Shown here: piece by piece, positions 4,234-46,238 of the stretch
Position numbering within the stretch: position 1 is the first letter of the stretch
Layout: the number at the start of each line of letters is the position of its first letter
Source of the DNA: a virus
Direction: 5' to 3' (one strand)
DNA length: 46,238 nt
Virus record (IMG/VR): IMGVR_UViG_3300033141_002325
Span: 1 to 46,238 of that record
Notes under the pieces: generated by a model
What the model was told of the DNA's origin: nothing
The model's database searches: none
The model's input: only the letters and a program-made list of their open reading frames with translations
Position numbers and translations under genes: made by a program

Positions 4234-4256
4234 CTATGGGGGATTTTTCCCCAAAG
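4234..4256 (+). repeat. G4-N7-C4 quasi-palindrome, copy 1
   Basis: CTATGGGGGATTTTTCCCCAAAG. It starts directly after the stop TGA at 4231-4233. The AAAG flank runs into aaagagga (SD) and the portal ATG at 4267. Confidence 0.85.
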
Positions 4257-4266
4257 AGGAAATGAA

Positions 4267-16021: not shown

Positions 16022-17320
16022 ATGGCTATAAATGGAACAGGCGCGTGGGATACGATAACTTGGCCTTGGCCTCAGGTAAGATTCTTAGAGTATTATACTT
16101 TAGGATTTGCTCTTATAGATTCAAACCTGTGGTTATATGAGCTTTATTGCAGCATAAGTGATGTATGGCAAGCTACTGCAATTAAGAATCTTGGAGCTTA
16201 CACTAACATTGATCAGATAGATGTAGTAGAGTCAGGAAATTTCTACTTGCTTACTGTCTTTGGTAGGCCTAGTGGAACTATCACGATTGACTCTTACATT
16301 CGAAATCCAGGAACTGGCACGCCATTGGTTACTCAGCTTCCCTCAAGTTACATTCCTGAGAGCATTGCAGTATGTAACTATAATGGTCAGTTCATTCTTG
16401 GTGGGATTCTTCATGGAGATAACACTAAGTTTGGCGACGCAGGATTGAACACAGTTATGTGGAGTCAGATTGGGAGAGTAGAGTTCAGGATAGATAACAG
16501 TGTCACTCGTACCGCAGGCTATATGAATATGCCTTGGGGAGAGTGGAAGACTGGCGTGGTTTACAAGGTTAAGAAGTTAGGACAAAAAGTCCTTGTTTAC
16601 GGAGATGGAGGAAAAGGATTTTTAATCCCTATTAGTCAGCCTGTTAGTGGTTATGGATTCGAGAATGTTTCAGGAGCTGGAATTAGGTCTGGATTTCATA
16701 TAGATGGAGATGATGATGTACATGGATTTATAGATTCCAACTACGATTTTTGGTTAGTGAGAAGCGATTATCAGTTCAAAAAGCTTGGATATAATGAGTT
16801 TATGAAGGATCTTATTACTAACGGAACAACAAAGGTTTCTTATGAGCCTCAAGGTAAAAGGTTCTACATAAGCAACGGAGTTAAAGGTTATGTTCTTACT
16901 GAATATGGGCTTTACTCGACGAATCAATTAGTGACTTCGATAGGAAATTATCGTGGCAAAACTCTATGTGGATTCTTCAAAGATTCAGAAGACGCAGAAT
17001 ATCGTCTGGTTTCTGACACCCTTGATTTTGGTATAAGAGGGATGAAAACGGTAGAGACAATGGAAGTAGGAGTTGACTCACCCACGGAGATTTATGGAGC
17101 TGTTGATTATCGCTATGATAAGACAGGTAGTTTTACTCGAAGTAGTTGGGTTAGAACTAATAAAGAAGGAGGAGTAGGAATAATCAAGTCAGCTCCAGAG
17201 TTTAGGTTGTGTGTGAAGTCTGCTGCTTTTGCCAACGTGAACGTGGACTATATTAACATCATGGTTAAAACAGTAGATAAAAGAATGATAAGAGGAGCTT
17301 ACAGTCCCAAGACCAAATAA
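16022..17320 (+). CDS. Hypothetical structural protein (tail or nozzle candidate by position)
   Basis: 432-aa ORF with gggag upstream, located in the tail module. I recognised no motif. Confidence 0.55.
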   Translation: MAINGTGAWDTITWPWPQVRFLEYYTLGFALIDSNLWLYELYCSISDVWQATAIKNLGAYTNIDQIDVVESGNFYLLTVFGRPSGTITIDSYIRNPGTGTPLVTQLPSSYIPESIAVCNYNGQFILGGILHGDNTKFGDAGLNTVMWSQIGRVEFRIDNSVTRTAGYMNMPWGEWKTGVVYKVKKLGQKVLVYGDGGKGFLIPISQPVSGYGFENVSGAGIRSGFHIDGDDDVHGFIDSNYDFWLVRSDYQFKKLGYNEFMKDLITNGTTKVSYEPQGKRFYISNGVKGYVLTEYGLYSTNQLVTSIGNYRGKTLCGFFKDSEDAEYRLVSDTLDFGIRGMKTVETMEVGVDSPTEIYGAVDYRYDKTGSFTRSSWVRTNKEGGVGIIKSAPEFRLCVKSAAFANVNVDYINIMVKTVDKRMIRGAYSPKTK

Positions 17321-17322
17321 CC

Positions 17323-17345
17323 CTTTGGGGATTTTTTCCCCACAG
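17323..17345 (+). repeat. G4-N7-C4 quasi-palindrome, copy 3
   Basis: CTTTGGGGATTTTTTCCCCACAG. It begins 2 nt after stop TAA 17318-17320 and ends 14 nt before ATG 17360. Confidence 0.8.
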
Positions 17346-25381: not shown

Positions 25382-25546
25382 AAGAAACTCTTCTGAGTGT
25401 TTCTGCTTGAAATAGATCTTTCCCACGCCTCCACACTCGAAGCATCTTCTACTTCCATAGCCAATCAAACTAATCTTCCCTGTACCTCTACAATGCTTAC
25501 AGGGAAGACTAGTTATCCATTCCATCTTTGGTGATTTATTCCCCAT
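25349..25546 (-). CDS. DnaJ-type cysteine-rich zinc-finger micro-protein
   Basis: 65 aa with two CxxCxGxG motifs (CKHCRGTG, CFECGGVG). The first ATG lies inside palindrome copy 4, with an alternative ATG at 25525. The 3' end overlaps the convergent 1803-aa gene by 33 nt. Confidence 0.6.
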   Translation of the reverse strand: MGNKSPKMEWITSLPCKHCRGTGKISLIGYGSRRCFECGGVGKIYFKQKHSEEFLLKTSKLSHRA

Positions 25547-25548
25547 AG
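25526..25548 (-). repeat. G4-N7-C4 quasi-palindrome, copy 4 (GGTG variant)
   Basis: The plus strand reads CTTTGGTGATTTATTCCCCATAG. The minus strand reads CTATGGGGAATAAATCACCAAAG and lies 1 nt after the stop of 25550..25687. Confidence 0.75.
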
Positions 25549-27186: not shown

Positions 27187-27480
27187 CTAAATAGCATTTT
27201 CATCAAGCTTGTGATCTCCGCACCAGTCGGTTAGGAAGACAACAGGGTAACCATTCATAGTAGGAGCATGTCTTCTACATCTTCCTACAGTGGTTGGTAA
27301 TGGTGATATAGGAGAAGTCTTTTTAACGAACCATATACATGTTCTACATATCATATTTCTACTTCTATGTTCCCAAGGATCTTTCACAAAGTAACCTTTT
27401 GGATCTGAATCTGATTCTGGCCTCGAAATTGGCGCATCGAGTTCTTCTATTTTCCTAATTTTTTCATTCTCCATCTTCAT
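27187..27480 (-). CDS. Hypothetical Cys-containing small protein
   Basis: 97 aa with CRTCIWF..GRCRRHAP..DWCGDHK. It overlaps the polymerase 3' end by 17 nt. Confidence 0.6.
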   Translation of the reverse strand: MKMENEKIRKIEELDAPISRPESDSDPKGYFVKDPWEHRSRNMICRTCIWFVKKTSPISPLPTTVGRCRRHAPTMNGYPVVFLTDWCGDHKLDENAI

Positions 27481-29923
27481 TCTCCTTTATTTTATTGTAT
27501 CCTTCTTCTAATCTCAACGCAAGTAGTTGAGAAGACTCAGGAAACTTATTGTGTTTGAATTCTATTCCTTCTTCTTTATAAAGATTAAATCCCATTACTA
27601 AGTCAACAGGAATTACAAACTCTACCTCACCCCATTTCAAAGAAGTCTCAAGGGATTCCTTAATCCTCATTAACATATCAGCATGCTCAGACCAGGGGAT
27701 GCTAAGAGGTATTTGAAAACCTATTGAGTCATGCACTTGAATGAGAAGCTCCAAGGGCTCGAACCATTGCTGGTTTTGATAGATAAATGCCAAGCCTTGT
27801 TCGTCAATCTTATCTGCAATTGTAGACTGAGGAATTTGAGCATAAGCATCACGAAACAAATCATCTCCCCATTGCTGAAGAAAGAGTCTCTTACGACCAA
27901 AAAGGTTTGTGAGAGTTCTATCTTTTGCAAGCTGAGTTTTAACCATCTGATGAAAACTTCCTCTAACCTCAGGATAAATAGAATGATAACGATCAAGAAG
28001 CCACTTACTTTCATTCTCCATTATCTCAACTTGGAGAGCGAACTTCTTATATCCAAGATCGTAGTTAAAAGAGTGATTAGTTTTCTTTCCCCAAAATCTT
28101 TCTGAATGAGTACCATCACCAAGGGATGAGCTTCCATCTTCATCCGAGATTTCGTTGGGACTCTTGCCAAAAATTAAAGAAGCAGTTAAAGTATGAACAT
28201 CTGCTTCCTCTTCAAAGGCCTTTATCATGCGAGCTACCTTGCCTATATAAGCTACTATTCTATTCTCACCTTGAGACAGATCAAAAGAATAATAAATGTA
28301 TCCTTCATCAGCAAGCAGATATTTTAACAACTTATGAGGCCAGTTTTGCATATTCATTCCTGTACCAAAGATATTCTCGCTTGAAGAAAGTCTACCTGTC
28401 TTTGTTCCAACAGGGTTATAAGAACAGCGAATTCTCTTATCAGAATCTACTTTGTCTAGATTCATATAAGCAGAGGAAAGCTTACGCAAGGTTCTTATCT
28501 TTCCCACAATCGAGGCTTCCTTAACTCCCTTTCTACTAAGTCGCTTTAAGGCAGTTTCATCTGTTGTGATAGCTCCTTTTTTTCTGTAAGCCTTATGTCC
28601 AAGCTTCTCATAGAAATACCATTTGAGCTGATTAGGAGAGTTTGCATTAAGCTCCATTCCTGCAAGAGAGTTCAGCTCCTTTTGGAAACCTGTAAGCTGA
28701 CTTTCCATTTCCATTTTAGCACCAAGCATACCACTAGTGTTTACTCTTATTCCTCTATTCATCATATAAACAAGAGGTTCGACTATGCTTACTTGGCGTT
28801 CATAGGTAGGCAAATTGTCTTGATGTTTTAGATGTTTCAGCTGTTCAGGAAATGAAGCTGCACAAGATATACTATCCATTCCATTATAGTGCCAAAGAGT
28901 TTCCCACGCACCACCTACTTTGAACCATCTTTTTCCATCAGCTTTGTAATAAGGAATGTCAGTGTGAGTGGAGACTATGAAGTCTAAGCCCATTGGGTAG
29001 TCAGGAAACAAAATCTTCTGAGCAATCATAGTATCATGAATGTTGTGGACCTTGATTCCGAAGCGAGAGAGAAGAACAGTGGAGTCGAACGCTAGGTTCT
29101 GACCACGCTTTTTGATCTCAGAATCTTCAAGGATTAAGGCAATAGCCTTCCATATTGCAGCTTCCTGCTCAATTGTGAAGTAGTCTCCCCTTGAGTCGAT
29201 GAAAGGAATTGACATAGCATTATGAGGAGAGTGAGCGAAGCTGATACAGGAGACCTCGTTGTTGAAGACCTCGATGTCAAAATCTATAACAGCTCCGCTC
29301 TTGCCTTTCTCATGGCAGAGGTTGAGAAAGGCTAGTGAGTCATAGTAAGAAGGACCTATAGTTATGTTACGTCCTTCTGGACGAATCTCAGGAAAGGCTG
29401 CTTCTTTCATTGCCTTAATCAAATCAAAGATTATCAGACGCTTATTCAAGTAAACATTCTTTGGAGGAATGACAGTAGCAGGATGAATAATAGGGACTAC
29501 TTTCTTTCCTGGAATAAGAGTAGACTCAAGGACTGATCCTCGCCAGCTTGTAATTCCCATTCTACTTGTAAGAACATAAAGAGCTACATTGCCAATGGCT
29601 ATTATTACATTAGCAGAGCAATCAAGTAATTCATCCTTAAGTATTTGAACATACTCTCTGCCCTCATCAGAAAGACTCACACTTCCTCGACCAAACTTGA
29701 TGTATTGATCAAGAGGAAGGTCTAAGTCCTTAACCACGTTCGTGATGTAGCATTCGAACCTGGAGATCTTAGCCACGGTGAGACAGGAAGTAAGTTCTCT
29801 ACCTGCAGGCCCAGTGAAAGGCTTACGAGTGTAGATTTCTGATCTTCCAGGCTGTTCACCTACCAAAGCAATTGAGCAATTTTTTCTGTCTCCCTCAGGA
29901 GGAACAGCGGTTGCCTTCTTCAT
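27464..29923 (-). CDS. Family A DNA polymerase with 3'-5' exonuclease and an N-terminal UDG-like (family 4-like) domain
   Basis: 819 aa. UDG-like motifs: ALVGEQPGRSE, FTGPAGREL, IIHPAT. Exo I/II/III: DFDIEV, NLAFDS, YNGMDS. Pol motif A is SFDLSQGENRIVAY, motif B is RFWGKKTNHSFNYDLGY and motif C is LIQVHDSI. Confidence 0.88.
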   Translation of the reverse strand: MKKATAVPPEGDRKNCSIALVGEQPGRSEIYTRKPFTGPAGRELTSCLTVAKISRFECYITNVVKDLDLPLDQYIKFGRGSVSLSDEGREYVQILKDELLDCSANVIIAIGNVALYVLTSRMGITSWRGSVLESTLIPGKKVVPIIHPATVIPPKNVYLNKRLIIFDLIKAMKEAAFPEIRPEGRNITIGPSYYDSLAFLNLCHEKGKSGAVIDFDIEVFNNEVSCISFAHSPHNAMSIPFIDSRGDYFTIEQEAAIWKAIALILEDSEIKKRGQNLAFDSTVLLSRFGIKVHNIHDTMIAQKILFPDYPMGLDFIVSTHTDIPYYKADGKRWFKVGGAWETLWHYNGMDSISCAASFPEQLKHLKHQDNLPTYERQVSIVEPLVYMMNRGIRVNTSGMLGAKMEMESQLTGFQKELNSLAGMELNANSPNQLKWYFYEKLGHKAYRKKGAITTDETALKRLSRKGVKEASIVGKIRTLRKLSSAYMNLDKVDSDKRIRCSYNPVGTKTGRLSSSENIFGTGMNMQNWPHKLLKYLLADEGYIYYSFDLSQGENRIVAYIGKVARMIKAFEEEADVHTLTASLIFGKSPNEISDEDGSSSLGDGTHSERFWGKKTNHSFNYDLGYKKFALQVEIMENESKWLLDRYHSIYPEVRGSFHQMVKTQLAKDRTLTNLFGRKRLFLQQWGDDLFRDAYAQIPQSTIADKIDEQGLAFIYQNQQWFEPLELLIQVHDSIGFQIPLSIPWSEHADMLMRIKESLETSLKWGEVEFVIPVDLVMGFNLYKEEGIEFKHNKFPESSQLLALRLEEGYNKIKENEDGE

Positions 29924-33149: not shown

Positions 33150-33172
33150 CTTTGGGGAATTAATCCCCATAG
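33150..33172 (-). repeat. G4-N7-C4 quasi-palindrome, copy 5
   Basis: The plus strand reads CTTTGGGGAATTAATCCCCATAG. The minus strand reads CTATGGGGATTAATTCCCCAAAG-GAG. It lies in the 48-nt gap between 33189 and 33140. Confidence 0.85.
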
Positions 33173-37788: not shown

Positions 37789-37955
37789 TGAGGAAGACAG
37801 GATTCGAACCTGCACCTTGGTGCATCAAGGGGAACATTATTAAGATTCAGTTGCACACCTATCTTCAGTTAATTAACTTGAGGTTCAAGTTCAAGATTAA
37901 CTAATGTTGCGTCTACCAATGGCAAACAGAAACTTGCCAATTCCGCCACTTCCTC
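37789..37955 (-). tRNA. Leu-type class II tRNA-like gene interrupted by a 21-nt D-loop insertion and a 57-nt anticodon-loop insertion (possible pseudogene or unusual precursor)
   Basis: The minus strand has acceptor GAGGAAG/CTTCCTC (7 bp), D-arm GCGGAATTGG..TAGACGC, a long variable arm CCTTG-ATGCAC-CAAGG and T-arm GCAGG-TTCGAAT-CCTGT with discriminator A. Total length is 167 nt against about 87 nt expected. Confidence 0.6.
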
Positions 37956-38889: not shown

Positions 38890-38912
38890 CTTTGGGGGAT
38901 AAATCCCCATAG
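38890..38912 (-). repeat. G4-N7-C4 quasi-palindrome, copy 6
   Basis: The plus strand reads CTTTGGGGGATAAATCCCCATAG. The minus strand reads CTATGGGGATTTATCCCCCAAAG-AGGGAGGG. It lies 1 nt after the stop of 38914..39078. Confidence 0.85.
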
Positions 38913-40431: not shown

Positions 40432-40446
40432 AAGATGTTCCTTTCT

Positions 40447-40469
40447 CTATGGTGATTTATTCCCCAAAG
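40447..40469 (+). repeat. G4-N7-C4 quasi-palindrome, copy 7 (GGTG variant)
   Basis: The plus strand reads CTATGGTGATTTATTCCCCAAAG. It overlaps the last 4 codons and the stop of 40457..40738. Its 15-nt core is identical to that of copy 4. Confidence 0.75.
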
Positions 40470-41105: not shown

Positions 41106-41645
41106 CTATGCAACCACGTTATTAGGAACAACTCCCAGTGCGTTCTTGATCTTTTTTAGTTCTTCCTTCTCCTTCTCCTCATATTCATGGAGATTGATTT
41201 CTCCTGAAGCATCAGAGATTCTTTCCTTCTGTTCTTTTTCCTTTTTGTCCCAGTTCTCAACCTGCTGTTTAACTACTGCATATAAGTTGTCATCTTGCTC
41301 TCGCTTTATAGAAGTTGTTATCTCACTCATTCTTGCAGACCTATGAGCTAATGAAGTTGAGTCAATTCCGGCGAGATTACAATAGAGATTTCGCCTGCCT
41401 CGACCTGAAGGATTCAAACTCCCTTCCAAGCCAAACTCTTGAAGAATTCTTTGAGCATCTTCTACATCCTCAACTATTGTCGCCGAGCCATTGTTCTTGA
41501 GAACTTCTACCATTCCTTCTAACGTTAGTCTAGTCAACTCACTTATCGACCTCACTCTTTCTCCTTGATCATAGTACCAAAGCACTAATGATGCAAGAGT
41601 AGTTCTTTTACATCTCGTTTGCACCACGCTATCATTCTTCATCAT
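41106..41645 (-). CDS. Hypothetical protein, first gene of the second minus-strand transcription unit
   Basis: 179-aa ORF with RBS aaaggagaagg. A consensus-like promoter lies 25 nt upstream. Confidence 0.65.
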   Translation of the reverse strand: MMKNDSVVQTRCKRTTLASLVLWYYDQGERVRSISELTRLTLEGMVEVLKNNGSATIVEDVEDAQRILQEFGLEGSLNPSGRGRRNLYCNLAGIDSTSLAHRSARMSEITTSIKREQDDNLYAVVKQQVENWDKKEKEQKERISDASGEINLHEYEEKEKEELKKIKNALGVVPNNVVA

Positions 41646-41668
41646 TTCCTTCTCCTTTCATTGTCATA

Positions 41669-41697
41669 AGCATATCATATTCCATGGTAGTTGTCAA
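41669..41697 (-). promoter_or_regulatory. Sigma70-like promoter
   Basis: The minus strand reads TTGACA (41692-41697), a 17-nt spacer, then TATGCT (41669-41674). Confidence 0.65.
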
Positions 41698-41717
41698 TGT
41701 ATTATTTGGTGGTATTG

Positions 41718-42069
41718 TATGTTGTTTATGTCTTAAGTGTTTGTTTGCTTTGTATGTCAAATATGCCTCGTATGTCACCCCGTCTCCCTTTCCTCAAATT
41801 CATTCCCCATAGCTGAGCTCTTCTCTTCTATGATGATAAATTCTTCATAGAGATTCCTTCTACTACTTTCCTTCTTCTACTTATTCTTCTTCCTTCTTCC
41901 TTATTTTATTCTTATCTCTTTTTTTTTTTTTCTATATATATATATAAGAGAGAGAGAGAGAAGAGAAACTAAGGCTTCTTCCTCTTTGGGGAATGGTTTT
42001 TAAGAGGAAGGGTGGGGGTAGCATACAAGACATATTTGACACTTAAGACATAAAGACATAAAAGACACT
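41718..42069. other. Non-coding hub: inverted iteron arms flanking a pyrimidine tract and microsatellites (replication-origin or control-region candidate)
   Basis: The left arm has TATGTY at 41718, 41727, 41753 and 41771. The right arm has AGACAYW at 42028, 42046, 42054 and 42063. There are perfect inverted pairs TATGTCTTAAGTGT (41727-41740)/ACACTTAAGACATA (42039-42052) and GTCAAATATG (41756-41765)/CATATTTGAC (42031-42040). Confidence 0.7.
41919..41960. repeat. Contiguous T13-C-(TA)7-(AG)7 microsatellite block
   Basis: T-run at 41919-41931, TA x7 at 41933-41946 and AG x7 at 41947-41960. It is preceded by about 100 nt that is almost entirely pyrimidine on the plus strand. Confidence 0.95.
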
Positions 42070-42100
42070 GATTGTGGCATTAATCCAAGGATGGAGTTCC

Positions 42101-42123
42101 CTATGGGGAATTAATCCCCAAAG
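42101..42123 (+). repeat. G4-N7-C4 quasi-palindrome, copy 8
   Basis: CTATGGGGAATTAATCCCCAAAG. It lies 17 nt downstream (minus sense) of the terminator at 42140-42169, at the edge of the non-coding hub. Confidence 0.85.
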
Positions 42124-42139
42124 GAGAGTGAGTAAAAGA

Positions 42140-42169
42140 AGAGGGACACACTTGTGGTCGTGTCCCTCT
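42140..42169 (-). terminator. Rho-independent terminator ending the first minus-strand unit
   Basis: A 10-bp stem (42140-42149 / 42160-42169, AGAGGGACAC/GTGTCCCTCT) with a 10-nt loop. The minus strand then reads TCTTTTACT. Confidence 0.7.
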
Positions 42170-42178
42170 CGAAGGTTA

Positions 42179-43022: not shown

Positions 43023-43111
43023 GATATTCTCCCTTTCATTCCAGGCACTCATGAAAAAAGACTCGTGTTTATTCAGTTGTCAAAGATCAATTAATCATTG
43101 TTTTTGATTTC

Positions 43112-43140
43112 ATCCTATCAGGTCATTAACCACTTGTCAA
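43112..43140 (-). promoter_or_regulatory. Sigma70-like early promoter for the minus arm
   Basis: The minus strand reads TTGACA (43135-43140), a 17-nt spacer, then TAGGAT (43112-43117). Confidence 0.55.
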
Positions 43141-43337
43141 GCATTATTATAATCCCTAATCATTTCAAGCACTTGCCAACCATCACAATTTGAGGGCTAT
43201 TTCGATGGTTGGGACTCCAGAGGGGGATTAATACGTGCGCGCTATGAGAACTCAAGGTTTTAGATTATGTCCAACTTTTATAATACCACAATATTATGGC
43301 ATTCGCTGCGCTCATTAGGAAGGGAGTGGGGAAAGCA

Positions 43338-43360
43338 GTGTGGGGAATTATTCCCCAAAG
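43338..43360 (+). repeat. G4-N7-C4 quasi-palindrome, copy 9 (in the divergent control region)
   Basis: GTGTGGGGAATTATTCCCCAAAG. It lies about 135 nt upstream of the plus-arm -35 box and is not adjacent to any start codon. Confidence 0.8.
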
Positions 43361-43381
43361 CCGGGCGATCAACTAACATTC

Positions 43382-43451
43382 CAGGTCCGCTAGGACCATG
43401 CCTGAGGACCATTTCCTTGCTCACGTCTACGTCCACGTCCAGGACCTGGAC
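43382..43451. promoter_or_regulatory. GC-rich repeat cluster upstream of the plus-arm promoter (operator candidate)
   Basis: Hairpin GGTCC-GCTA-GGACC (43384-43397). GGACCAT occurs twice (43393, 43406). Tandem ACGTCT-ACGTCC-ACGTCC at 43423-43440. Perfect 15-bp palindrome GTCCAGGACCTGGAC at 43437-43451. Confidence 0.6.
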
Positions 43452-43494
43452 TACGAATGAAATGAACCTTTGAGTAATACCACCAATTATTAGC

Positions 43495-43523
43495 TTGACT
43501 TCTAAGAATATTAATGTTATTAT
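43495..43523 (+). promoter_or_regulatory. Sigma70-like promoter for the plus arm (extended -10)
   Basis: TTGACT (43495-43500), a 17-nt spacer ending in TGT, then TATTAT (43518-43523). The ATG at 43548 lies 25 nt downstream. Confidence 0.65.
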
Positions 43524-43547
43524 GGATTAAGAAGATTGGAGAGAAGG

Positions 43548-45343: not shown

Positions 45344-45366
45344 CTATGGGGAATTTATCCCCAAAG
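45344..45366 (+). repeat. G4-N7-C4 quasi-palindrome, copy 10
   Basis: CTATGGGGAATTTATCCCCAAAG. It begins 11 nt after stop TAA 45330-45332, and aaggagg sits just upstream of its internal ATG. Confidence 0.85.
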
Positions 45367-45545: not shown

Positions 45546-46238
45546 AGGAAGATCCGTTTATCAAAGCTATGATGGAGCAAGCTTTTCTCAGCACTCGTGC
45601 TTTGTGCAAGCTTTTTCTAAGTGATATTTTTAGTGCTCCGTTCTCAACTTTGCATGATCAGATCTTCGAGTTGATTGATTCTGGACACAACAAAATAGCT
45701 ATCGCTGCTCCTCGTGGAATTGGCAAAACTTCTATTGCACGAGCAGTTGCAACGAAGGCTATTCTTTATCGTTTGAAGAAGTTCATTGTCTACGTTTCGA
45801 ATAGTGCCACGATGGCTGAGATGCAGACTGAGAACATCAAACGCGATTTGATGACTAACACAACAATCAAGAAGCTCTTTGGAAATATTAAGATGAGTGA
45901 TGTAGAAGGTGCTGATGATACTTTCTCTAAGCTTGCGTGGGTAGCATTTGGAAACACTTTCGTTCTTCCTCGTGGAAGTGGTCAGCAGGTTCGTGGTCTT
46001 AACTGGGCAAATGTCAGACCTGAGCTTATTATTATTGATGATCTTGAGGATAAGGAAGAGGTCAAGAACGAGGAAATAAGGAAGAAACAAAGAGAGTGGT
46101 TCTTTAGTGATCTTCTTAAAACGGAAGATAAGTATGGTAATCCTACTGTGTTCATCTACATCGACACGATCAAGCACGAAGATTCTCTTCTCGAACTGTT
46201 GATGGAATCTCCTGAGTGGGCAAGTATTCGTTTAAGTA
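45542..46238 (+). CDS. terL: Terminase large subunit, N-terminal ATPase part (the ORF runs off the window end and continues at base 115 by circularity)
   Basis: My own translation is MKEDPFIKAMMEQAF...KIAIAAPRGIGKTSIARA (Walker A) ...RPELIIIDDLED (Walker B). It is not in the ORF track because there is no stop before the window end. Confidence 0.9.
   Translation, partial: MKEDPFIKAMMEQAFLSTRALCKLFLSDIFSAPFSTLHDQIFELIDSGHNKIAIAAPRGIGKTSIARAVATKAILYRLKKFIVYVSNSATMAEMQTENIKRDLMTNTTIKKLFGNIKMSDVEGADDTFSKLAWVAFGNTFVLPRGSGQQVRGLNWANVRPELIIIDDLEDKEEVKNEEIRKKQREWFFSDLLKTEDKYGNPTVFIYIDTIKHEDSLLELLMESPEWASIRLS
46125..46238. repeat. Terminal overlap, copy 2 (identical to 1-114)
   Basis: See copy 1. The overlap falls inside terL. 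Confidence 0.95.

Follow-up and report, generated by a model that had tools for sequence, protein, structure and literature searches.

Inverted iteron arrays around the least stable DNA of an uncultured phage genome: a possible replication origin fused to the control region of the replication operon

Does the largest non-coding gap of an uncultured phage genome hold its replication origin? The question is raised by a 533-bp region, here called the hub (41646-42178), in IMG/VR virus record IMGVR_UViG_3300033141_002325; the window, as the term is used below, is the whole stretch analyzed, 46,238 nucleotides. The hub is free of credible open reading frames (ORFs), heads the replication operon and consists of two opposed arrays of short repeats (iterons) on either side of an easily melted core. 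The initial annotation described it as the largest gap, which is true only roughly and by a narrow margin, the divergent promoter region at 43053-43535 coming second with 483 bp. To our knowledge, replication origins have almost never been identified in uncultured phages. The hub is interpreted here, with a probability of about 0.5, as an origin of bidirectional replication fused to the control region of the replication operon. What points most strongly to an origin is the combination of a unique site, inverted arrays of element-specific iterons, the easiest-melting DNA between them and a position at the head of the replication genes.

The two arms of the hub, 41718-41812 and 41984-42069, form a single colinear imperfect inverted repeat of ~95 nt each; the left arm carries a single 17-nt insertion relative to the reverse complement of the right arm. 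The arms had been annotated as including short inverted pairs. The pairs themselves stand, that of 10 bp (41756-41765/42031-42040) as given and that of 14 bp (41727-41740/42039-42052) as part of a perfect 16-bp pair (41725-41740/42039-42054); they are not just scattered, all belonging to the one repeat. Read inward, each arm presents the perfect 16-mer, a shared block, TCAAATATG-YCT-YGTATG, a homopolymer run (C on one arm, G on the other) and a palindrome half-site. Together the arms hold nine TATGTY/RACAYA units. In the arm proximal to the promoter, TATGTY starts at 41718, 41727, 41753 and 41771, with spacings of 9, 26 and 18 bp; in the distal arm, GACA starts at 42029, 42038, 42047, 42055 and 42064, and Tandem Repeats Finder (TRF) assigns 42038-42069 a repeat period of 8-9 bp. 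In the hub, iteron words rise to 7 per 120 bp versus an average of 0.17 over the genome, which has no other cluster of them. The hub folds as one long hairpin on either strand (z = -7.1 on the minus and -6.0 on the plus strand), with none of 100 shuffles folding as well, and the two arm mismatches are G-U compatible on the minus strand. The components are given below in sense (minus-strand) order; L numbers denote loci of related phages.

42130-42170, minus strand: intrinsic terminator that closes the upstream small-gene operon (p115, p54, p61); left hub boundary in sense orientation
42101-42123, no strand assigned: full palindrome copy, CTATGGGGAATTAATCCCCAAAG, also present in L113 (421-443) and, degenerate, at the same position in L114
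42071-42083, minus strand: CCACAAT box, TTAATGCCACAAT, at the outer edge of the upstream arm, read from sequence
42012-42069, no strand assigned: iteron arm distal to the promoter, five AGACAY/TGACAC units at ~9-bp spacing after the G-run GGGTGGGGGT (42010-42019)
41984-41994, no strand assigned: half-site CTTTGGGGAAT at the inner end of the distal arm; CCATTCCCCAAAG (sense) in L113, L114 and L128
41813-41983, no strand assigned: core, putative DNA-unwinding element (DUE), 171 bp, with a pyrimidine tract at ~41841-41918 (plus strand), T13, (TA)7 and (AG)7
41802-41812, no strand assigned: half-site ATTCCCCATAG at the inner end of the proximal arm; CTATGGGGAAT (sense) in L113, L114 and L128, there as part of a nearly complete palindrome
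41718-41789, no strand assigned: iteron arm proximal to the promoter, TATGTY units followed by the C-run GTCACCCCGTCTCCC
41698-41722, minus strand: UP-like box, CAATACCACCAAATAATACA, directly upstream of the -35 hexamer
41669-41697, minus strand: sigma-70-type promoter, TTGACA-17-(TGn)TATGCT, 10/12 matches, with TG; drives p179 and the replication operon
41106-41645, minus strand: p179, candidate iteron-binding protein, first gene after the hub promoter

The core reads (CT)7-(TA)7-A13-purine tract on the sense strand. Its T13 (41919-41931), (TA)7 (41933-41946) and (AG)7 (41947-41960) runs were recovered at exactly the annotated coordinates, and the annotated near-pure pyrimidine tract proves to be the most pyrimidine-rich 60-mer and 100-mer of the window on the plus strand. 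The core is the least stable duplex of the genome in windows of 30, 50, 100 and 200 bp (z = 3.9, 4.2, 3.65 and 2.8, respectively). Triplex formation and slippage, both raised in the initial annotation, are plausible physical properties of such DNA.

The window is a complete circular phage genome of ~46.1 kb, circularly permuted: nucleotides 1-115 recur at 46124-46238, and the circular assembly is opened inside the large terminase gene, so that ORF 24-941 is the C-terminal part of the large terminase running across the junction (phrog_38, positions 445-713 of 760). Structural genes fill 1-25.4 kb on the plus strand, and the replication module lies at 25.9-43.05 kb on the minus strand; plus-strand genes restart at 43.5 kb with a helix-turn-helix protein, p204, and a holin. 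The replication module encodes a DUF3987 'primase'/helicase-like protein, a UDG-PolA fusion, a dCMP deaminase, a ParB-methylase, an AAA_24 protein, a PD-(D/E)XK nuclease and an ATP-dependent ligase. The DUF3987 protein and the UDG-PolA polymerase are encoded in the same operon as p179.

Among named phages, Desulfofustis phage LS06-2018-MD01 comes closest in its polymerase (50% identity). The window polymerase (27464-29923, minus strand) fuses a uracil-DNA-glycosylase-superfamily domain, a 3'-5' exonuclease and a family A polymerase; the Desulfofustis phage polymerase has the same fused architecture over 99% coverage. The sole paper naming a relative makes no mention of the hub region (PMC10370329). 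A near-identity DNA search of GenBank phages with the 41-43 kb region gave no match and no close relative; likewise, an IMG/VR search with p179 and exact-protein look-ups for p179 and P0002 returned no match, and an exact 16-mer scan of IMG/VR yielded chance matches only, without extended similarity. Since the closest relatives (L083, L027, L009) end before the hub is reached, more distant relatives were compared, their loci being retrieved via homologues of the ligase, the holin and the downstream gene (p179) and via the promoter box.

An automatic hub test asked for a 400-bp dyad (z ≤ -4.6) enclosing an A-run of 8 nt or more on the sense strand, upstream of a p179-family gene in the same operon; 22 of the 34 non-redundant loci carrying a p179-family gene passed it. 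Read along the sense strand, the layout comprises the terminator, an optional full palindrome, an iteron arm, a G/C run, a half-site, a pyrimidine-rich tract, an A-run of 8-17 nt or (TA)n, a purine-rich tract, a second half-site, a G-run, the inverted iteron arm, the UP-like box (…CCAC(C)AAATAWTA…), the promoter and the operon. This order recurs in L113/L118, L114-L117, L128, L119, L028/L029 and L077, and also in L041, L034, L075, L040/L069, L130/L131 and the Desulfofustis phage. In all ten relatives delimited by hand, the hub folds into a hairpin along its whole span (z between -3.5 and -13.9). An A-run of 8-17 nt lies on the sense strand in 12/12 examined hubs; L130 and L131 have a (TA)-rich 60-mer in its place. 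The least stable 50-mer lies inside the hub in nine of twelve loci, among them the whole 44-kb Desulfofustis phage genome, where the hub spans 42.9-43.56 kb and an A17 run sits at the global stability minimum.

What is kept is not the sequence. The iteron word is TATGTC in the window, TTAGGCT/TAATCC in L113 and L114, GTGACTCGC in L028, TGTTTGCAT in L077, CTATCCT in L041 and TAGTGGGATAATAT in L112 and the Desulfofustis phage; within any one phage the two arms share their word, inverted relative to each other, so that the arms turn over together. Comparison of the loci indicates that the hub is conserved in architecture and physical character rather than in sequence, and the joint turnover of the arms is, by analogy, the behavior of ori-initiator specificity modules. 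The core follows the same pattern. The microsatellites as such are not conserved, relatives carrying other AT-rich or purine/pyrimidine (R/Y) tracts in place of (CT)n, (TA)n and the A-run; since L130 and L131 keep the dyad with a purely (TA)-rich center, it is low stability that is conserved and not a particular repeat. As judged from these comparisons, the window microsatellites are one local form of a low-stability requirement and not conserved elements. In two assemblies, the near-identical hubs L040:6181-6290 and L069:5106-5215 differ by A11 versus A12 in the A-run, which reflects either homopolymer slippage or sequencing error. A recent insertion of a miniature inverted-repeat transposable element (MITE) or other transposon was considered as a source of the hub and rejected, position and architecture being kept at only 50-60% polymerase identity.

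The palindrome half-sites that bracket the core belong to a genome-wide set. The palindrome, CTWTGGGGAWT-N-AWTCCCCAWAG, occurs in about nine full copies, all intergenic and most of them 5-15 nt upstream of a ribosome-binding site, and its half-site motif has 12 matches genome-wide versus 0.76 expected.

4234-4260, 17320-17345, 25525-25548, 33150-33172, 38890-38912, 40445-40469, 42101-42123, 43338-43360 and 45344-45366: full palindrome copies in the window

The hub half-sites, recovered at the annotated positions 41802-41812 and 41984-41994, had been read as an 'inside-out' pair. The right-hand hub palindrome is nearly complete in L114 and L128, and the half-sites are therefore best read as flanking palindromes with decayed outer halves; the simplest account of the inside-out order is thus that the inner halves of two core-flanking palindromes survive. 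Another clade (L028/L019, L077/L026) has its own intergenic palindrome, ACTTCGTTCAT-WWW-ATGAACAWAG, with one copy and one half-site in the hub: the palindrome sequence co-varies by clade and its position is kept. Because a clade's own palindrome sits inside the hub too, the factor that would read it is also a conserved hub component. The palindrome may serve as a phage factor's binding site or, as RNA, form a hairpin that acts in processing or termination.

The boundaries of the hub are conserved as well. The terminator and the promoter (41697-41669), both on the minus strand, were reproduced as annotated. The terminator hairpin at 42139-42170 has a 12-bp stem with 6 G-C pairs, an 8-nt loop and the T-rich tail CTTTTACTCA; an equivalent hairpin stands at the same place in L113, L114, L128, L119, L028, L077 and L112. 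In 11 relatives, the place equivalent to the promoter holds TTGACA or TTTACA, a 17-nt spacer and TGnTATAAT or TATGAT. The UP-like box is identical or nearly so in L113, L118, L128, L114, L028, L077, L130 and L131, and a second one lies at 43477-43494 (plus strand) before the p204 promoter, which has no iterons; the common form is ATACCACCAA(A/T)T(A/T)ATTA. Occurring at the p204 promoter too, the box is tied to promoters and not specific to the hub; it may be an UP element or an activator site common to the p179 and p204 operons. The divergent region in which the second box lies (43053-43535) is GC-richer and contains (CACGTC)x3 with flanking GGACC repeats at 43422-43441. At the outer edge of the upstream arm, the CCACAAT box is kept as TTAATGCCACAAT in L114, as ATACCACAAT in L113 and as TTAAATCCACAAT in L041 and L130.

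Two closely related phages, L028+L019 and L077+L026, differ in their iterons but share 89-97% identity in their polymerase, ligase, nuclease, ATPase, methylase and p204 proteins (92% for p204 between L028 and L077). The DUF3987 proteins of the L028 and L077 phages are nevertheless 96.7% identical, with identical C-terminal 130 residues. Being near-invariant despite differing iterons, this protein is not the specificity determinant, and a separate reader is needed. The DUF3987 protein also gave no PDB sequence match to the Rep protein of the staphylococcal pathogenicity islands (SaPIs). By contrast, the genes flanking the hub, p179 included, are only 48-62% identical between the L028 and L077 phages (L028:2000-5700 versus L077:3400-7100). 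This local divergence suggests a swappable module made up of the cis-site and its neighbors or binder, i.e., a hotspot of module exchange.

The best candidate reader is p179. Its family comprises 507 cluster representatives at E ≤ 1e-3, and 22/22 hub-bearing relatives encode a member in the same operon, 0-2.7 kb downstream of the hub. The AlphaFold2 model of p179 built on a 119-sequence alignment (pLDDT, predicted local distance difference test, 90.9) has an extended segment at residues 1-12, helices at 13-25 and 33-51, and long helices at 95-146 and 151-170; a G-x-VP C-terminal tail is conserved in the family. A model from a shallow alignment was poor and disagreed with the deep-alignment model. 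The deep-alignment model is consistent with a ribbon-helix-helix (RHH)-like N-terminus followed by a coiled-coil-like tail, and the motif G-x3-RS-x-SEL-x-R fits an RHH loop and second helix. Pfam RHH_1 matches one of 119 family members (E = 0.004). Searches of p179 against Pfam, PHROGs and PDB sequences found no significant match, and Foldseek found nothing significant, with the RHH proteins DinJ, NikA and TraM appearing only at E > 4. The putative DNA-reading strand nonetheless appears to follow the iterons: Q-x-R goes with TGTATG/TATGTC-type words (window, L119, L028, L038, L052), Q-x-W with TAGGCT/TAATCC or TATCCT words (L113/L118, L114, L128, L041) and E-V-T/S with TTAGTW words (L075, L040). 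The tracking is rough, the phages being phylogenetically non-independent, and it is suggestive. The initial annotation saw no initiator gene nearby; this was wrong in spirit, since a probable DNA-binding protein whose strand tracks the iterons is encoded immediately after the hub promoter.

These elements suggest how an origin of this kind might fire. A phage-encoded sequence-specific protein, for which p179 is the best candidate, would bind the 7-9-bp-period iterons of both arms cooperatively. The loaded arms would flank the 170-bp easily melted core and would probably pair across it. The promoter abutting the proximal arm would then fire away from the core. In the twin-domain model, transcription leaves negative supercoils behind RNA polymerase; negative supercoiling behind the polymerase leaving this promoter would favor opening of the core or extrusion of the dyad. 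The DUF3987 primase/helicase-like protein and the UDG-PolA polymerase would be recruited afterwards.

The suggestion of a classical origin, made in the initial annotation, thus gains from the family-wide architecture, the genome stability minimum, the unique iterons and the place at the operon head; it gains nothing from skew or DnaA boxes, and several observations weigh against it. Cumulative GC skew, proposed there as a means of locating the origin, reaches its local minimum at ~43.5 kb in the divergent promoter region, 1.3-1.9 kb away from the hub; this minimum follows the switch in gene orientation at that place and is uninformative. Coding-strand skew at third codon positions (GC3 skew) is alike across the hub, 0.11 on the left and 0.16 on the right (n = 95 on the right), and that of the three small genes beyond the hub is the same as in the rest. 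DnaA boxes (TTWTNCACA, up to one mismatch) are absent from arms and core, and their genome-wide count is below expectation. The 'CCACAA' boxes were considered as DnaA-box-like, the CCACAAT boxes matching the DnaA box at 6-7 of 9 positions, and were rejected as part of the UP-like element also present at the p204 promoter. The helicase-like DUF3987 protein had to be given up as iteron reader on the evidence above, and the RHH assignment of the alternative, p179, is without significant database support. RHH proteins are classically repressors or centromere binders, not initiators, and contiguous iterons of 7-9-bp period beside a promoter also resemble RHH operators. Finally, 12 of the 34 loci failed the automatic hub test, and the least stable 50-mer lies outside the hub in three relatives. 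The independent origin signals being absent (GC skew, GC3 skew, DnaA boxes), confidence in an origin is set at about even odds.

In the main rival reading, the hub serves transcription control only: the arms would be operators for an RHH regulator (p179 or a small protein of the upstream operon), which would loop the DNA between them, thereby repressing the replication-operon promoter or setting its timing, with the core as a flexible or bent spacer; this is a real possibility, if on balance a doubtful one. Between the proximal arm and the -35 hexamer of the strong, conserved promoter there are ~20 nt; the gene that comes first downstream is RHH-like, its strand motif tracking the iterons; and the skew gives no origin signal at the hub. 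Contiguous 7-9-bp sub-sites in direct and inverted arrays are typical of RHH operators, e.g., the MetJ metboxes and the omega heptads. Replication operons headed by an RHH repressor are known; CopG-RepB of pMV158 is one. Another is orf56/orf904 of pRN1 (PMC4234260). Yet the iterons leave the -35 and -10 hexamers clear and occur at no other promoter, that of p204 sharing the UP-like box without them. An operator loop would also leave unexplained why its spacer is the stability minimum in the window and in 9/12 relatives, and why low stability is kept while A-runs, (TA)n and R/Y tracts replace one another. The two functions are not mutually exclusive: in iteron plasmids, the same repeats serve both the origin and autoregulation.

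Two short-repeat clusters around a bendable AT-rich center of ~170 bp, unique in the genome, also recall a packaging site (pac or cos) at which the terminase small subunit would bind repeats around a central cleavage region, as in P1 or SPP1 pac, and several short relative contigs end <1 kb from the hub. Such a site is quite improbable here: the hub lies ~2.8-3.2 kb from the terS candidate and terL, with the divergent promoter region between, and is coupled to the replication-operon promoter in every relative. The genes that co-diverge with the iterons are its neighbors and not the conserved late-operon proteins (p204 is the example, at 92% between L028 and L077). Contigs from four independent assemblies cross the hub and end at differing places outside it, and a physical genome end at the hub was rejected on that ground. 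Were the phage to persist as a plasmid does, RHH filaments on the two arrays might instead pair or position genomes, as in ParR-parC or omega segrosomes; the short-period arrays and the domain logic of p179, whose RHH-like N-terminus, long helical region and conserved C-terminal peptide resemble ParR, would suit such a centromere. It is nevertheless very improbable, as no ParA, ParM or TubZ-type motor was found among the proteins scanned, nor any integrase or plasmid-maintenance gene, and the only named relative, the Desulfofustis phage, was predicted to have a strictly lytic life cycle (PMC10370329). It is likewise highly unlikely that the hub is transcribed into a structured non-coding RNA or a long-hairpin RNA element. 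The hub-spanning folds are strong and conserved, the two G-U-compatible mismatches would be tolerated in a minus-strand transcript, and the core-flanking palindromes are those that flank genes elsewhere; but the strong terminator stands directly upstream, no promoter-like site lies upstream of the core on either strand besides the outward p179 promoter, and the indels and tandem sub-repeats of the arms resemble arrays of protein sites and not a maintained helix. Rfam models scored at best 23 bits on the hub versus a gathering threshold of 63, every match being spurious and due to microRNA (miRNA) or leader models aligning to the (TA)n/(AG)n run.

Elsewhere in the replication module, a 213-bp gap holds a tRNA-like gene at 37789-37955 (minus strand), which scores 30.3 bits with the Rfam tRNA model versus a gathering threshold of 29 and is not called by ARAGORN. 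Its acceptor and T arm are perfect. Two insertions interrupt it, one of 24 nt and one of 90 nt at the anticodon region, and the gene may be either a degenerate tRNA or one with an intron.

The signature described here is searchable and independent of sequence: a terminator, a dyad of clade-specific iterons, the genome stability minimum and a strong outward promoter. Within one phage family it picks out an equivalent position in dozens of genomes, including that of a phage of a sulfate reducer from salt-marsh 'pink berry' aggregates. If the hub is a true origin, it pairs a cis-site with the large uncharacterized p179 family as its likely specificity factor, explains the local hotspot of module exchange and offers a minimal replicon for hosts without genetic tools. 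If it is an operator loop only, it would still exemplify clearly how an RHH-style array controls the replication operon of a phage.

Among known systems, the experimentally defined SaPI origins are the closest match in layout: their 6-12 penta- or hexanucleotide iterons are divided equally between the two sides of a central AT-rich region and point in opposite directions (PMC9371898). SaPI ori and the hub share short iterons (5-6 nt and 6-9 nt, respectively) in two opposed sets, an AT-rich melting center, element-specific iteron words and a position adjoining replication genes (PMC9371898). Unlike the hub, where the DUF3987 protein is invariant between phages with differing iterons, SaPI ori is read by a self-loading Rep helicase through its C-terminal winged helix, and it lies 3' of rep, whereas the hub lies 5' of its operon, fused to the promoter. 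The hub is also larger (~350-450 bp) and has G/C runs, palindromes and an R/Y-asymmetric core.

The iteron cassettes of pSC101, P1 oriR, F and lambda ori combine iterons, an AT-rich unwinding element, a downstream binder gene and a promoter abutting the iterons, and they share with the hub a specificity that co-evolves by module. Their iterons are 17-22 bp long, direct and on one side of the DUE, their readers are winged-helix Rep proteins or O, and DnaA boxes are usual; the hub, by contrast, has a 7-9-bp period, two inverted arrays, no DnaA box and an RHH-like candidate binder. Inverted initiator sites around an AT-rich center are found in herpes simplex virus (HSV) oriS/oriL, the simian virus 40 (SV40) core origin and archaeal oriC with its inverted origin recognition boxes (ORB), an arrangement that suits head-to-head loading of two helicases and bidirectional replication. 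The initiators of these origins are unrelated, the host domain is different, and the hub phage has no homologous proteins.

RHH arrays offer another parallel. ParR-parC, the omega heptads of pSM19035, ParG sites and the MetJ metboxes have contiguous 7-11-bp sub-sites, bound cooperatively, with the binder's own promoter adjoining, and the modeled p179 would share the RHH-like topology with an extended helical tail. These arrays act as operators or centromeres and enclose no conserved unwinding element, and no partner motor was found in the hub phage. In P1 pac and SPP1 pac, two short-repeat clusters flank the cut and a bent center, within or beside the small terminase gene; the hub differs in being coupled to the replication operon, ~3 kb from the terminase genes.

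A more specific idea is that the hub represents an undescribed type of origin, in which p179-family proteins with RHH and coiled-coil parts, in place of a winged-helix initiator or the helicase, would polymerize on inverted arrays of 7-9-bp iterons, pair them in a segrosome-like manner, open or extrude the core, recruit the DUF3987 protein through the C-terminal tail and autoregulate the operon. This is speculative, and unlikely in its full form. In logic the hub resembles known iteron/DUE origins; its departures from them are very short-period iterons arranged in two long inverted arrays, a non-helicase and maybe RHH-like reader, and an R/Y-asymmetric core bracketed by clade-specific palindromes.

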